Assembly: GCA_963828735.1 (NCBI GenBank)
Contig: CAWHFW010000005.1
Coordinates: 1,696,001 to 1,760,000 of the forward strand
From: an uncultured Gemmatimonadales bacterium
GTDB taxonomy: Bacteria > Gemmatimonadota > Gemmatimonadetes > Gemmatimonadales > GWC2-71-9
Direction: 5' to 3'
DNA: 64,000 nt
Of the stretch, positions 54,079-61,256 are shown piece by piece (the stretch's first letter is position 1; each line of letters starts with the position of its first letter). The notes under the pieces were generated by a model, which worked only from the letters and a program-made list of their open reading frames with translations, made no database searches and was not told where the DNA came from. The translations under genes and the position numbers were made by a program.

Positions 54079-55650
54079 CTACGCCCCGCCCGCCACCGCC
54101 CGCACCGCTGACACCACCCCCGGCTGGACAGCCACGTCCGCAAGCGCGGCCACCGCGCCGATCACCGTAACGACCGGGTTCTCGAGCCCGTCCCGGTCGG
54201 CCGCGTCGGCGATCGTGGCGAGCGTGGCCCGCGTGACCCGCTGCTCGGCCGTCGTGGCGCTCTGAATGCAGGCGGCCGGCGTCTCCGGGTCCCGGCCCGC
54301 CGCCACGAGCTGCGCGGTCAACGCGCCAAGGCTCGCTCGGCCCATCAGCACCACCAACGTATCCACGGCCGCCAGCCCACTGACGTCGATCGCTTCGCCC
54401 GACCCGTCGGCGGTGTGCGCCGTGACCACCGCGAACGAGCGTGCGAGCCCGCGCGCCGTCACCGGAATGCCCGCCGCGGCAGGCGCGGCGATGGCGCTGC
54501 TCACCCCCGGCACCACGTAGACCAGGACGCCCGCCTCGCGGCACGCGGCCGCCTCCTCGCTTCCTCGCCCGAAGACGAACGGGTCGCCGCCCTTGAGCCG
54601 GACCACGGTGTGACCGAGCCGCGCCCGTGCCACGAGCATCGCATTGATCTCGTGCTGAGCGTACGGCGCGTGTCCCGGACCCTTGCCGACGTCGATGAGC
54701 TCGGCGTCGGCGCGTGCTTCCTGGAGCAGCTCGGGTCCGATCAGGCGGTCGTGCACCACCACGTCCGCCGCGCGGAGGAGATCGAGCCCGCGTGAGGTGA
54801 TGAGGCCCGGGTCGCCGGGGCCGCCGCCGACCAGATGGACCGTCCCGGTCTTCTTCGGCGGCCCGGTCATGAGCCGGGGACGGAAGCGCCGCGCGGGCGG
54901 CGGCGTGTGCTTACGCGCCAGGTCGACGACGATCTCCTCGAGCCCGGCGTATCCCCCGACGGCGTCGTCGATCAGGAGCCGCCGGTCGTCCCCCACCCCC
55001 TCCCGCCAGCCCTCGATGGCAGGCAAGCCCGCCAGCAGGGGCACGTCCTCGACCGCATGGGTTCCTCCCCCGATCAGGAACGGGATCACCAGTACGGTCG
55101 GGCGGCGGACCGATGCGACCACGCGGTCGAGCGGGGGGTCGTCGTCCAGGAATCCGGCCGCCACGTGGCCCGCCACGCGCCGGCGCCGCAGCGTATCGGC
55201 AAGCAGCTCGGTGGCGGCCCGGCTCTTCGGGTGCCGGCCCGTGCCATGGCCCGCGATCACCAGCCCGACGTCTTCCCGATCGACGTGCCGATCGCGCAGC
55301 AGCTCGGTCACCCGGCGGGCAACGAGCGGGGCCACGCCGGGGTGGGTGCCGACCGGCGGCGTCTGCCGCAGCCGCACGCCGCCGAACCTCCGATTCCGGG
55401 CGAGCGCCTCGGGCAAGACGATCTCACTGTAGTATCCGGCGCTCGTCAGGAACGGGACGACCGTCACCTCCTCCGCCTCGAGCTCGTCGAGCACGGCATC
55501 GAATCCGGGCTCGCCCTGGTGGAACGCCACCGCGATCTCGTCGAAGAGCCGGCGCGCGCGCAGCGATTCGGCCAGCCGCCGCACCAGCGCGTTCGCGCAC
55601 GGCTCCCGCCGCGAGCCGTGCGCGGCGATGACCAGCGCCCGGCCGCTCAC
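54079..55650 (-). CDS. cobA: Fusion of CbiX/SirB-type chelatase and uroporphyrinogen-III C-methyltransferase
   Basis: N-terminal AHGSR, GHGT, G.H..ED. C-terminal VGGGPGDPGLIT, VRLKGGDPFVFGRG.EE, VPGVSSA. Confidence 0.88.
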   Translation of the reverse strand: MSGRALVIAAHGSRREPCANALVRRLAESLRARRLFDEIAVAFHQGEPGFDAVLDELEAEEVTVVPFLTSAGYYSEIVLPEALARNRRFGGVRLRQTPPVGTHPGVAPLVARRVTELLRDRHVDREDVGLVIAGHGTGRHPKSRAATELLADTLRRRRVAGHVAAGFLDDDPPLDRVVASVRRPTVLVIPFLIGGGTHAVEDVPLLAGLPAIEGWREGVGDDRRLLIDDAVGGYAGLEEIVVDLARKHTPPPARRFRPRLMTGPPKKTGTVHLVGGGPGDPGLITSRGLDLLRAADVVVHDRLIGPELLQEARADAELIDVGKGPGHAPYAQHEINAMLVARARLGHTVVRLKGGDPFVFGRGSEEAAACREAGVLVYVVPGVSSAIAAPAAAGIPVTARGLARSFAVVTAHTADGSGEAIDVSGLAAVDTLVVLMGRASLGALTAQLVAAGRDPETPAACIQSATTAEQRVTRATLATIADAADRDGLENPVVTVIGAVAALADVAVQPGVVSAVRAVAGGA

Positions 55651-57371
55651 CGGGCCACCTCCTGCGGCAACAGGTCGATCGTCGGCAGCTCGCGGCCGGT
55701 GACGACGGTGCGCTTCGCGCGGAGCCCCATCAGCCGCTGATAGAAGTCGCCCAGGCTCTCGTCACCGTCGCGCTCCGCCGCCCATCGGTGCAGCAGTGGA
55801 CGCATGGTGTCGAGCAGCTCCTCGATCGGTACGTCGGCCCGGTAGAGATCCACCAGCCGGTCGCCCGCGAGTCCTCCCCCGACGTACACGTTGTACAGCC
55901 CGAGCGAGCGACCCACGAACGCGAGATCCGCGGTATAGGGACGCGCACAGCCGTTGGGGCAGCCGGTCATGCGGATGGTGAGCGGCGCATCGCGCAGGCC
56001 GAGGTGCTCGAGCTCGGCCTCGAAGTGGTCGAGCAGGCCGGGAATCGCGCGCTCCGACTCGGCCACCGCGAGACCGCAGGTCGGCAGGGCGGGGCAGGCC
56101 ATGGAAAACCGCCGCGCGGCCGAGAGCCTCGTCGGCAGGGTGACGCCGTGGGCCTGGAGGATGCGCTCGACGGTCTCGATGCCGTCGGAGTCGAGGTCGG
56201 TGAGCAGCAGGTTCTGCTGGCCGGTGAGACGGATGCCGGGGCGCAGCCGTGCGACGATCTCGTGCAGCGCGCTCTTGAGCCGATGCGCTCCCGTGTCCAC
56301 GATCCGTCCGCTCTGGATGAACACGCCATAGAACCACCGCCCGTCGCTCTGTCGGTGACGGCCGAGGTGGTCGTGGAACGGGAGCCGCGGGAGGCTCACG
56401 GCCGGCGCGAGCGTGAACGACGCCCGCCGCTGGAACTCCTCGCGGAAGCGCGGCGTGCCCCAGTCGGCGAGGAGGTACTTGAGCCGCGCGTGCCGGCGAT
56501 CGCTCCGGTTCCCGTGGTCGCGGAAGATCGCGGCCACGATCCGCACGGCCTCGACGCCGTGCTCGGTCGGCACGAAGCCGAGCGGCTCGGCCAGGCGGGC
56601 GGCGGTGTCGCCCTTGTGGTGCGTCATGCCCAGGCCGCCGCCGACCAGCAGGTTGAAGCCGCGGATCCGCCCGTCCTCGACGATCGCGAGGAGCCCCACG
56701 TCGTGGGCCCAGATGTCCACGCAGTTGTCGGTCGAGAGGCCGACCGCGGTCTTGAACTTCCGCGGGAGGTAGCGGTCGCGGTAGAAGGGCTCTTCCTGCT
56801 CGGACGATTCCTGCTTCTCGCCGTCGAGCCAGATCTCGTGGTACGCCCGCGTCCCCGGGCGCAGCTCGACCGCGAGCGCTTCAGCGACGGCACGAACGGC
56901 GGCGTGATCGGCATCCGCGAGCGGCGCCGAGCACCCCATGACGTTGCGTTGGACGTCGCCGCAGGCGGAAATGGTCGTGAGGAGCGCCTCATTCACGCGC
57001 GCGATCGTGGGCTTGAGCTCGCCCTTGAGCACGCCGTGGAACTGAAAGCCCTGGCGGGTGGTGACCCGCAGGGTGGCGTTGCCATGCTCGTCGGCGATCC
57101 GCTCGAGGGCGAGGTACTGCTCCCCAGCCAGCTGTCCGGCGGGGATCGCCACCCGCACCATGAAGCTGTACGCCTTCTCGAGGCCGGCGGCCTCGAGCAC
57201 GCGGCGCGCGTCGCGATCGTCCTGCTGGTACGTGCCGTGGAACTTGAGCAGGGCGACGTCGTCGCCGCCGAAGTGCGTCCGGTCGGAGCCGAGCGTCTCG
57301 GCGATGGTGCCGCGCAGGTGATGGCCCTGGCGCTTGGCGACCTCGACCTTGGATTCCGGTTGTCCGGTCAT
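55647..57371 (-). CDS. cysI: Assimilatory sulfite reductase hemoprotein
   Basis: KFHGTYQQDDRD, TTRQ, ACGDVQRN, YLPRKFK, ACPALPTCGLA, RMTGCPNGCARPY. Confidence 0.93.
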   Translation of the reverse strand: MTGQPESKVEVAKRQGHHLRGTIAETLGSDRTHFGGDDVALLKFHGTYQQDDRDARRVLEAAGLEKAYSFMVRVAIPAGQLAGEQYLALERIADEHGNATLRVTTRQGFQFHGVLKGELKPTIARVNEALLTTISACGDVQRNVMGCSAPLADADHAAVRAVAEALAVELRPGTRAYHEIWLDGEKQESSEQEEPFYRDRYLPRKFKTAVGLSTDNCVDIWAHDVGLLAIVEDGRIRGFNLLVGGGLGMTHHKGDTAARLAEPLGFVPTEHGVEAVRIVAAIFRDHGNRSDRRHARLKYLLADWGTPRFREEFQRRASFTLAPAVSLPRLPFHDHLGRHRQSDGRWFYGVFIQSGRIVDTGAHRLKSALHEIVARLRPGIRLTGQQNLLLTDLDSDGIETVERILQAHGVTLPTRLSAARRFSMACPALPTCGLAVAESERAIPGLLDHFEAELEHLGLRDAPLTIRMTGCPNGCARPYTADLAFVGRSLGLYNVYVGGGLAGDRLVDLYRADVPIEELLDTMRPLLHRWAAERDGDESLGDFYQRLMGLRAKRTVVTGRELPTIDLLPQEVAR

Positions 57372-57378
57372 CGCTGCC

Positions 57379-58104
57379 TCATGCCTTTCGGGCCAGGTGT
57401 CGTGGAGCGTCGACGTGCAGGCCGCACTCCGTCTTGTCGGTGCCGGCCCAGCGGCCGGCGCGGGTGTAGTCGCGGGGACCCGCGCCGAGAACCGCGCTGG
57501 TGCAATGGGTGCAGCCCAGCGTCGGATAGCCGCGCTCGTGGAGCTCGTTGTAGGGCACGTCGTGCGCGACGACGTAGTCCCAGACGCGCCGGCGGTCCCA
57601 GCCGGCCAGCGGGTTCACCTGCACGAGCCGATAGGCGTCGTTCCATTGGAGCTCGCCGAGGCTGCTGCGTTCGCCGCCCTGGCTCCGCATGAGCCCGGTC
57701 ATCCACACGTCCACTCCTTCGAGCGCCCGCCGCATGGGCTCGACCTTCCGGATCGCGCAGCAGCGATCCGGATCGTGGCGCCAGAGCTCGGCGCCGTACC
57801 GCTCGGCCTGCGCCTCGGCCGTGAGCGTGGTGCCACGGTTCTCGAACCGGAGGTGTGGATAGCGCTCGACCATGCGGTCGCGCAGCGCGTACGTCTCGGG
57901 AAACAGGAACATCGTGTCCAGATAGACGACCGGGATCCGCACGCCGTGCCGCGCCACCATGTCGATGAGCGCGCAGCCCTCCATGCCGAACGACGTCGTC
58001 ACCACAAGGCGCCGGTCCGCGAAGCGACGGAGCGTCCACGCCACGATCTCTTCGGGGGTCGACTGCTCGGCGATCTCCGTCGCCGTCGTTCCGTGCGTCA
58101 GCAT
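57379..58104 (-). CDS. cysH: APS/PAPS reductase (Fe-S type, probably APS reductase)
   Basis: TSFG, LDT..LFPETY, CC.IRKVEP, GYPTLGCTHCT, RAGRW, ECGLH. Confidence 0.93.
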   Translation of the reverse strand: MLTHGTTATEIAEQSTPEEIVAWTLRRFADRRLVVTTSFGMEGCALIDMVARHGVRIPVVYLDTMFLFPETYALRDRMVERYPHLRFENRGTTLTAEAQAERYGAELWRHDPDRCCAIRKVEPMRRALEGVDVWMTGLMRSQGGERSSLGELQWNDAYRLVQVNPLAGWDRRRVWDYVVAHDVPYNELHERGYPTLGCTHCTSAVLGAGPRDYTRAGRWAGTDKTECGLHVDAPRHLARKA

Positions 58105-58126
58105 CTGCCCATGCTCTCCATGGCCC

Positions 58127-58164
58127 AAAAAAGGAAAAGCCCGCAGGACGTTGCCTGCGGGCTT
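58127..58164 (-). terminator. Intrinsic terminator (attenuator) upstream of cysH
   Basis: Minus strand AAGCCCGCAGG-CAACGT-CCTGCGGGCTT followed by TTCCTTTTTT. Confidence 0.85.
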
Positions 58165-58191
58165 CACACCATGCGCGTGAATGTCTGGCCG

Positions 58192-58299
58192 TTAGGTCGT
58201 CCGGTCGGGTGAGTCCTTCGCCATACAACAACAGGCCATCGCCCCCGCGAAGGGCGAGCGGGTGGCGAACCGAGGGGATACGGCCGAACGCATAATCAT
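58192..58299 (-). CDS. Cys-rich leader peptide, 35 aa (MIMRSAVSPRFATRSPFAGAMACCCMAKDSPDRTT)
   Basis: Three consecutive TGT codons (58233-58225), located between the promoter and the terminator of the cys operon. Not in the ORF track. Confidence 0.75.
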   Translation of the reverse strand: MIMRSAVSPRFATRSPFAGAMACCCMAKDSPDRTT

Positions 58300-58305
58300 A
58301 CGGTT

Positions 58306-58334
58306 AGCCTAAGGCTCACCGGCGGGGTTGTCAA
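58306..58334 (-). promoter_or_regulatory. sigma70 promoter of the cys leader (leaderless)
   Basis: TTGACA-N17-TAGGCT-N6-ATG(58299). Confidence 0.8.
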
Positions 58335-58430: not shown

Positions 58431-59000
58431 TTAGTTGGGCGAGGCGTCGAGCGACGGGGCACCCGGCGTGGCACGGCCCACGAAATTGTTCGCCCGGGCC
58501 GCCGTATCCGACGAATCCGTCAAACCGTCCGCGTCGGGAAGGCAGGAGAGGATCTTGGCCGCGCGCTGCGCGCCGCTGGGGTGCCAGGCGTCGAAGCGGA
58601 ACGGGCCCATGCGGGTGAAGAACTGGATCGCCGCATCCACGGCGGGGGACTCGCCCAGGGTCCGGGCGGCGTAGCAATCGGCCTCCAGCTCCTGGCGCGC
58701 GCGGAGGGCGCCCAGGTCTCCCTCACCCGCGGCGAGCGCGGCGCCCGTGTGACCGTAGCGCACGTGCCCGTACTCGTGGGCGAAGAAGTAGGCCTCGAGC
58801 TGCGGGCCGACCCGCTGCATCAGGACGGGATTGTAGTAGATGACCGGGCGTCCCTGCTCGAACGCGGCGAAAGCGACGTCCCGCAGCGTGTCGCTCGGGA
58901 CCTGCCGCACGTCGATCAGGCGCTGCAGCGCCGGGGCCCGATGGGTCCCGGCGGCCAGCAGCAGCGCCGCGAAGACGGTGGCGATCCAGAACCTGCGCAT
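58431..59000 (-). CDS. Secreted zinc metallopeptidase-like protein
   Basis: Signal peptide, FFAHEYGH, ELEADC, HP.G.QR. Confidence 0.75.
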   Translation of the reverse strand: MRRFWIATVFAALLLAAGTHRAPALQRLIDVRQVPSDTLRDVAFAAFEQGRPVIYYNPVLMQRVGPQLEAYFFAHEYGHVRYGHTGAALAAGEGDLGALRARQELEADCYAARTLGESPAVDAAIQFFTRMGPFRFDAWHPSGAQRAAKILSCLPDADGLTDSSDTAARANNFVGRATPGAPSLDASPN

Positions 59001-59252
59001 GGGCCCTCTGCTCGTGTACGAGCATTGCCGGTGCAACGTGAGGGCGGGGCGTCAAGTTCCGCTCAATGACGACGCCCTCGGCTTCGGTTCGAGCGCGAGG
59101 GCGTCGGGCGCGTCCGGGGACGGGCGCGGTCAGCGAAGCGGTCTCGTCGGTCGAACCAGCGTGAGCCTGGGGGTGGCCCAACGCGTCGTGCGATGGATCA
59201 AACGGGCTGCCCTGGTTGAGAGGGGGCTGGACGGGGTTTTGATGCCGGCTGA

Positions 59253-61256
<2,004 letters not shown>

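Follow-up and report, generated by a model that had tools for sequence, protein, structure and literature searches.

A probable cysteine-sensing, ribosome-mediated transcription attenuator upstream of the cysH operon in Gemmatimonadales

The minus strand of the window (the whole stretch of 64,000 nucleotides that was analyzed) carries a three-gene operon preceded by a short leader. The genes encode a (phospho)adenylyl-sulfate reductase, an assimilatory sulfite reductase hemoprotein and a fusion of two CbiX-type chelatase domains to a uroporphyrinogen-III C-methyltransferase, which presumably supplies siroheme, and they lie on the route to cysteine. cysH and cysI are separated by 7 nt, and the start of the cbiX/cobA fusion gene overlaps the cysI stop codon. 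The features of the leader and operon are as follows:

58329..58334, minus strand: -35 box TTGACA, read directly and present in 29 of 29 leaders L001-L029
58306..58311, minus strand: -10 box TAGGCT (TAnnnT type) after a 17-nt spacer, read directly, with similar boxes in relatives
58192..58299, minus strand: leader ORF of 35 codons, probably leaderless; its putative start, an ATG 6 nt after the -10 box, has weak anti-SD pairing
58222..58239, minus strand: region 1, the putative sensing codons Met21-Ala22-Cys23-Cys24-Cys25-Met26 (UGU three times), predicted to pair with region 2 when the ribosome is absent
58233-58225, minus strand: Cys codons 23-25, UGU UGU UGU, read directly
58194-58192, minus strand: leader stop codon TAA, read directly
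58190..58209, minus strand: region 2, the 5' strand of the antiterminator, comprising the last leader codons, the stop codon and the CG after it
58163..58181, minus strand: small spacer hairpin closing the antiterminator loop in folds, a possible pause site
58137..58164, minus strand: intrinsic terminator stem-loop of 11 bp, in which 58159-58140 doubles as the 3' strand of the antiterminator
58127..58138, minus strand: U tract interrupted by CC, read directly and called by a terminator scan
57379..58119, minus strand: cysH, 241 aa, with SD GGAGAG at 58119-58114 and ATG at 58104; NF002537 and TIGR00434 above cut-off
55647..57371, minus strand: cysI, 574 aa; NF010029 above cut-off
54079..55650, minus strand: CbiX/methyltransferase fusion gene, 523 aa; TIGR01469 above cut-off, PF01903 twice and PF00590

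Direct reading of the minus strand bore out the preliminary description of this leader, which had placed a TTGACA-N17-TAGGCT promoter 6 nt ahead of an ATG at 58299, a 35-codon ORF with TGT-TGT-TGT, and a stop at 58192 followed by an 11-bp-stem terminator and U tract before the cysH ribosome-binding site. The Met codons said to flank the Cys run do so unequally: Met26 is directly adjacent, whereas Met21 is one codon off, with Ala22 between. The terminator scan agrees, calling a stem-loop at 58165-58136. The stem is made of 11 Watson-Crick pairs (58164-58154 with 58147-58137) around a loop of 6 nt, and there are two terminator-like sites in 801 nt, compared with 0.4 +/- 0.8 in shuffles. Sequence similar to the spacer hairpin is present in the nearest relatives only, and TGTTGTTGTATG has a single occurrence in the 4.78-Mb genome. 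The gene upstream of the leader (58431-59036, minus strand) has an HEYGH motif and a weak Peptidase_M48 match, and it also lies upstream of the leader in some relatives. An ordinary TPP riboswitch precedes thiC at 59396-59504 on the plus strand.

The check proposed in the preliminary description, a search of related genomes for a Cys run plus terminator upstream of cysH, found both conserved. CysH was matched in 29 of 36 same-genus genomes, the match in G029 being a weak fragment, and all 28 genomes with a full cysH have the promoter, Cys ORF and terminator before it. The upstream flanks are unrelated in relatives, yet the whole layout recurs, which places it beyond chance. The named relatives that carry the leader are Gemmatimonadales; before cysH of L030, which belongs to another family, the promoter, Cys ORF and terminator layout is absent. 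Among the best 80 of 458 loci, a Cys ORF stands just before cysH in all 34 labeled Gemmatimonadales or Gemmatimonadaceae and in 2 of the 3 with Phycisphaerae-type labels (L061 and L064), and none adjoins cysH in the remaining 43. A class-wide draw of 251 genomes returned 14 further cysH genes above cut-off, and nine of them have a Cys leader and terminator, in two cases before a preceding gene (a cysC-like gene in L121). The other five comprise three genes internal to operons, one near a contig end and one, in L124, with Cys-Cys-Met codons without a terminator.

Several of these loci merit separate description. The leaders with Phycisphaerales/Phycisphaerae labels (L061:2619-2768 and L064, approximately 2680-2835) have the same terminator core, and their CysH proteins are 58-59% identical to the one described here; they may reflect transfer or mis-binning. 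The L064 leader seems to start at an SD-led GTG. In L124 (approximately 2330-2215, minus strand) the frame with the Cys-Cys-Met codons runs into cysH out of frame, and this is possibly a decayed or a translational version of the leader. L053 has tandem paralogous Cys leaders, one before a peroxiredoxin-like gene (1645-1770) and one before cysH (2752-2862). Short actinobacterial ORFs with a Met-Cys-Cys-Val-Met-Cys block lie about 2 kb upstream of cysH (L087:728-820, L090:941-1009, L094:941-1009 and L095:949-1035), with no U-tract terminator within the next 90 nt.

For comparative analysis, 66 leader hits were reduced to 56 distinct leaders by merging duplicates, and 54 of these were analyzed, L062 and L064 being dropped when the script found no start in them. 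Terminator sequence divides the 54 into classes of 37, 9 and 8 (classes 1, 2 and 3).

The promoter of the leader was not called by a consensus promoter scan (0 sites), because its -10 box matches only three of six consensus bases; the assignment of this putative promoter rests on conservation. In 54 of the 56 distinct leaders the -35 box is followed, at 34-39 nt, by an in-frame ATG (at 35 or 36 nt in 46); the leader-finding script itself required this distance, although only 2 of the 56 failed and L062 has such an ATG on reading. In the 54 analyzed leaders this position is that of the expected transcription start site. The anti-SD duplex at the leader ATG is -3.7 kcal/mol, compared with -6.4 kcal/mol at cysH. 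The conserved spacing suggests that the mRNA is probably leaderless, with transcription starting at or next to the leader AUG. The genome at large lends modest support to leaderless starts in this organism: an ATG follows the -10 box by 6 or 7 nt at 9 and 5, respectively, of 130 promoter-like sites, compared with 1.6 per position elsewhere. Fourteen RNA runs cover 0.06-0.25 of the stretch, and the contigs from four of them, all soil metatranscriptomes, leave 58148-58279 uncovered; contigs cannot show RNA ends.

The leader ORF bears the marks of a translated frame. Leaders range from 20 to 45 codons, with the frame kept from ATG to stop. In L001-L029 the distance from the last Cys before Met to the end of the stop codon is 36 nt in 23 leaders and 33 nt in 6, and the stop lies 26-31 nt from the terminator. 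The choice of TGT, already remarked on as unusual in the preliminary description, is indeed so: in long ORFs, 807 of 5698 Cys codons (14%) are UGU, compared with 81 of 105 in 29 leaders. Split by class, the UGU share of Cys codons is 109 of 124 (class 1), 21 of 47 (class 2) and 22 of 48 (class 3). UGC is common in classes 2 and 3 (26 of 47 and 26 of 48); therefore it is the amino acid that is kept, not the letters. The Cys pattern also differs between classes (CCC, CMCMCAC and scattered). The Cys-Met block is kept at the nucleotide level too, and the residues past it vary freely.

The only Cys anticodon found in the genome belongs to tRNA-Cys(GCA), which has two genes. In ribosome-free folds of this copy, region 2 pairs with the Cys codons (the 1:2 protector); the model gives 7.2 expected pairs for the UGU codons and 0.0 after recoding to UGC. 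As a general reason for keeping UGU this pairing was rejected: it holds here, but the Cys-codon measure shows it in just 6 of 54 leaders. What remains as a guess for the UGU preference is that tRNA-Cys(GCA) reads this wobble codon more slowly.

Both RNA helices expected of an attenuator are supported by comparison. Across 29 aligned leaders, 97.5% of 319 terminator cells are paired, with four pairs changed on both sides. The preliminary description had paired 58209-58198 with 58150-58140. This pairing is real, but the antiterminator is longer (58209-58190 with 58159-58140), including the stop codon and holding the 5' arm, loop and 3' arm of the terminator. Nor is the segment named there its best-conserved part, which is a CCU whose U opens the stop codon, together with the CG after the stop, pairing with the terminator 5' arm. 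Over the alignment, 87% of 400 antiterminator cells pair, compared with 31-48% for slid controls, and compensatory changes with both sides altered occur in seven cells at two pairs, from few clades and maybe few events. Among the 54 leaders, the stop-codon U pairs in all 54, the preceding base in all 54 and the next in 53 (C-G in 44, U-A in 9). The last leader codons match the terminator top class by class (CCU with AGG in class 1, CCUUCU with GGAAGG in class 2 and UCUCCU with GGGAG in class 3), and the C-terminal residues differ between classes while this pairing is kept. Region 2 forms duplexes with terminators of its own class at means of -20.0 to -23.7 kcal/mol, compared with -15.7 to -19.0 kcal/mol for other classes. 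In this copy the duplex, at -18.8 kcal/mol, does not clearly surpass shuffles (p = 0.10), and p <= 0.05 is reached in 31 of 54 leaders. At the level of aligned sequence, then, the antiterminator covaries with the terminator between classes, through changes that come from few clades and are not independent counts.

We folded the leaders with a ribosome footprint masked, as had also been proposed, setting the footprint at an assumed 13 nt; 10 and 16 nt gave the same picture in equilibrium folding to the stem end. At equilibrium, with the transcript extended to the stem end, a stall at the Cys codons flips the fold in 13 of 54 leaders and the terminator still wins in 41, including this copy (P = 0.98). 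Growing transcripts, which we folded as snapshots and not as a kinetic simulation, behave differently. Under the stall, 53 of 54 leaders are dominated by the antiterminator while 5-7 nt of the stem remain to be transcribed; when the ribosome has reached the stop codon, the top of the terminator forms in 53 of 54 at -5. When Cys25 of this copy occupies the A site, the antiterminator stands at 0.96-0.97 with 8 to 5 nt of the stem left to make and at 0.89 with 2 nt left, and the terminator overtakes it only at the last base. The earlier claim that a stalled ribosome leaves the pairing segment of the leader free and one at the stop covers it is thus supported by the model of the growing transcript and fails at equilibrium in the 41 leaders. 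Because equilibrium folding of the finished leader gives the terminator and the growing transcript gives the antiterminator, the modeled switch in this copy would need kinetic control.

Stepping the ribosome along this copy, we found that the terminator wins with codons 14-21 or 30-36 in the A site and is blocked with 23-29 there, so that the predicted read-through window begins at the first Cys. In class 1, the three Cys positions block the terminator in 37 of 37 leaders. The terminator was blocked by the real region 2 in 54 of 54 cases and by shuffled versions in 399 of 1620. Chimeras of leaders and terminators blocked in 301 of 321 cases within a class and in 34-54% across classes, with the exception that class-3 leaders block class-1 terminators in 245 of 296; class specificity is therefore incomplete. 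Ten further leaders were folded separately: the stall blocked the terminator in 7, one of which failed the at-stop control, and did not block it in the other 3.

Taken together, conservation, a frame kept over 20-45 codons, fixed spacings, covariation and ribosome-masked folding all fit the cysteine-sensing transcription attenuator suggested in the preliminary description. The leader is therefore very probably a ribosome-mediated transcription attenuator that senses charged tRNA-Cys on a leaderless mRNA and gates cysH-cysI-cbiX/cobA. From its observed parts, their conservation and their covariation, we infer the following course of start, translation, stalling and read-through. Transcription would start at or beside the leader AUG, as the conserved spacing suggests. 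With enough Cys-tRNA, the ribosome would pass codons 23-25 and cover region 2, and in the model the terminator then folds and transcription stops at the U tract before cysH. With Cys-tRNA short, the ribosome would wait on the UGU codons, masking region 1 and leaving region 2 free; region 2 is predicted to pair, while the terminator is being transcribed, with the top of its 5' arm and the loop and afterwards with the 3' arm, so that the terminator could not form in time (a kinetic effect in this copy) and the operon would be read. Without translation, region 1 would pair with region 2 and termination would be the default in this copy, a modeled feature that is not conserved in most relatives.

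The same RNA switch could instead be set by a ribosome stopped through an interaction between the nascent peptide and a ligand (thiol oxidation, sulfide or a metal acting on the Cys run) and not by lack of Cys-tRNA, which we consider very unlikely. The read-through window reaches codon 29, four past the last Cys, so a ribosome arrested while the exit tunnel holds the Cys residues would likewise turn the operon on, and the L053 paralog precedes a peroxiredoxin gene. However, the genes under control serve the route to cysteine, class 1 shows in its strong UGU bias a signal at the level of codons, and the free variation after the Cys-Met block and the class-dependent Cys pattern are unlike arrest peptides.

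A similarly low probability attaches to control that is mainly translational, as in mycobacteria, with a stalled ribosome freeing the cysH ribosome-binding site and the hairpin acting as a minor or constitutive terminator. It alone has been demonstrated experimentally for leaderless poly-Cys ORFs, in the available text of Canestrari et al. (10.1101/834739); the cysH SD of this copy can sit in the loop of a 5-bp hairpin, and the Cys-Cys-Met codons of L124 precede cysH without a terminator. However, both conserved helices leave out the SD, which comes 3' of the U tract. The partner of region 2 in pairing and covariation is the terminator and not the SD, and the stem is followed by a U-rich tail in the leaders listed.

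Still less probable is that the ORF is not the sensor at all, and that the choice between terminator and antiterminator is made by an RNA-binding protein, by a tRNA as in T-boxes or by a metabolite as in riboswitches, the Cys codons being a by-product of a UGU-rich motif. The nucleotide-level conservation of the Cys-Met block, and its pairing with region 2 here, would suit such a motif; the frequent UGC of classes 2 and 3 and the length changes that keep the ATG-to-stop frame would not. In addition, no Rfam family reaches its gathering score at the leader (the best, Thr_leader, scores 18 of 55 bits, E 0.66), and no T-box or SAM riboswitch covariance model matches there. A LysR search gave three matches above cut-off, and there may be a CysB-like regulator. 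Least credible is that the peptide itself is the product (a small thiol- or metal-binding peptide or a modified-peptide precursor) whose transcript the terminator merely ends: a Cys-rich peptide, 20-45 residues long, that has a promoter and a terminator to itself would fit, but apart from the Cys-Met block and the RNA-constrained end the peptide sequence is not conserved, no modifying enzymes lie beside the leader within the window, the operon SD is within about 10 nt of the U tract with no room for another promoter, and a covarying antiterminator would be purposeless.

Within the cysteine-sensing attenuator that we favor, the Met codons may have a part of their own. Met accounts for 106 of 279 non-Cys codons in the Cys block, compared with 13 of 1232 elsewhere (first three codons left out), with 63 of 126, 24 of 65 and 19 of 88 in classes 1, 2 and 3; Val, Leu and Trp show no such enrichment, although their codons are U/G-rich too. 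Because Met is enriched in all three classes, Cys-Met is found in 53 of 54 leaders and Met26 falls within the read-through window, the leader might read both Cys-tRNA and elongator Met-tRNA, much as thrL reads Thr and Ile. Together with the leaders before metY, cysC-cysH and the peroxiredoxin gene, it might then belong to a hitherto undescribed ribosome-read sulfur regulon of Gemmatimonadota that acts through transcription termination, an extension that we put forward tentatively and with some doubt. The Met codons may instead be kept for RNA reasons, and related leaders are not independent; Met shortage is also expected to block initiation. If Met codons are read too, this would be a rare case of a ribosome sensing methionine.

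The metY gene of this genome (C2:396942) is preceded by a 32-codon ORF with a Cys-Cys-Arg-Met-Met block and then a terminator-like hairpin (G000:C2, L152:1303-1401, plus strand). This leader is not leaderless, with a promoter-like site about 155 nt upstream. A Cys/Met ORF precedes metY at 28 of the best 30 genus loci, one of the other two lacking upstream sequence and one having been missed by the filter. In rough folding of the metY leaders, with several frames mis-picked and a weak at-stop control, the copy from this genome did not switch. A Cys leader was not seen in the 450 nt before three cysK-like genes, cysS, four other Cys/Met-metabolism genes and cysD of this genome, cysD sitting inside an operon whose start those 450 nt do not reach; no sat gene was found in the genome.

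The genome also holds leader-like ORFs for other amino acids. A prephenate dehydratase-ACT-DAHP synthase gene (pheA-aroF) is preceded by an apparently leaderless ORF of 29 codons (G000:C5:2228524-2228435, minus strand, in L111), in which six consecutive codons specify Trp, Phe or Tyr and after which come a hairpin and U tract; by its sequence this ORF is a candidate aromatic amino-acid attenuator. A 33-codon Leu/Val/Ile-rich ORF with hairpin and U tract precedes leuA (G000:C5:284987-284886, minus strand, in L112), and an apparently leaderless 19-codon ORF with two Tyr codons and a terminator precedes a Gcw_chp (PF09694) gene (G000:C5:1407408-1407467, plus strand, in L113). With leaders before pheA-aroF, leuA and metY in the same genome, ribosome-coupled control fits this lineage.

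The classical leader-peptide transcription attenuators are trpL, hisL, thrL, pheL and leuL of E. coli. The available text of PMC4007540 summarizes leader-peptide attenuation, and that of PMC13236596 treats ilvB1 of M. tuberculosis. The cysH leader appears to share the sequence-level features of trp/his-type attenuators: a short ORF with a run of codons for the pathway product, an alternative antiterminator and an intrinsic terminator, and, in the model, read-through upon stalling and termination with the ribosome at the stop. Unlike them, it would sense cysteine and gate sulfate-reduction genes, from an apparently leaderless mRNA in another phylum. Its region 2 lies inside the end of the ORF, includes the stop codon and pairs with both terminator arms; its 1:2 protector is not conserved; and it shows no sequence kinship with them (no Rfam match).

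Poly-Cys leaders have been described in other bacteria. The available text of Canestrari et al. (10.1101/834739) reports cysteine control by mycobacterial leaderless poly-Cys ORFs (the "Cys ribulon"), of which Ms5788A frees a sequestered SD and so acts in translation, the authors leaving the mode at other loci open. As there, the ORF described here has consecutive Cys codons before sulfur/cysteine operons, at more than one locus per genome, and is apparently leaderless, judging by spacing; unlike Ms5788A as described, its conserved helices involve the terminator and leave the SD outside. Seliverstov et al. (PMC1262725), in the part available, found no conserved terminator hairpins behind actinobacterial (mycobacterial) cys leaders, whereas the cysH leader has a conserved terminator and a covarying antiterminator. 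Brewer et al. (PMC8632094) predict uORFC-8-2 before cysS of Rhodobacterales to be an attenuator, with tandem Cys codons and then an intrinsic terminator; as far as the available text goes, it has two Cys codons, mostly UGC, is confined to alphaproteobacteria and is given without an antiterminator, whereas the present leader has three Cys codons and precedes cysH in Gemmatimonadales. In Deinococcus deserti a leaderless cysS leader, its start mapped by RNA-seq, is predicted to act by transcription attenuation (PMC4007540); it has ten codons, two of them Cys, and the available text describes no structure model.

That such an element had not been described for this lineage held in our literature search, which found predicted cysS cysteine leaders with terminators in other phyla. 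No terminator-type cysteine attenuator on sulfate-reduction genes, nor any in Gemmatimonadota, was found in the full-text literature, which leaves subscription journals largely outside, and the available parts of PMC2965389, PMC4833913 and PMC10783764 hold nothing on a cysH leader element. The attenuation principle is textbook, and its use on the sulfate-reduction pathway seems undescribed. As far as we found, cysteine is absent from the classical transcription attenuators shown by experiment, the proven case being translational and the terminator-type cases cysS predictions. The cysH leader would thus extend leader-peptide attenuation, apparently from a leaderless mRNA, to Gemmatimonadota, and its terminator/antiterminator design, here on a sulfate-reduction operon, is complete, is backed by covariation and is compact enough for a reporter test in a laboratory host.
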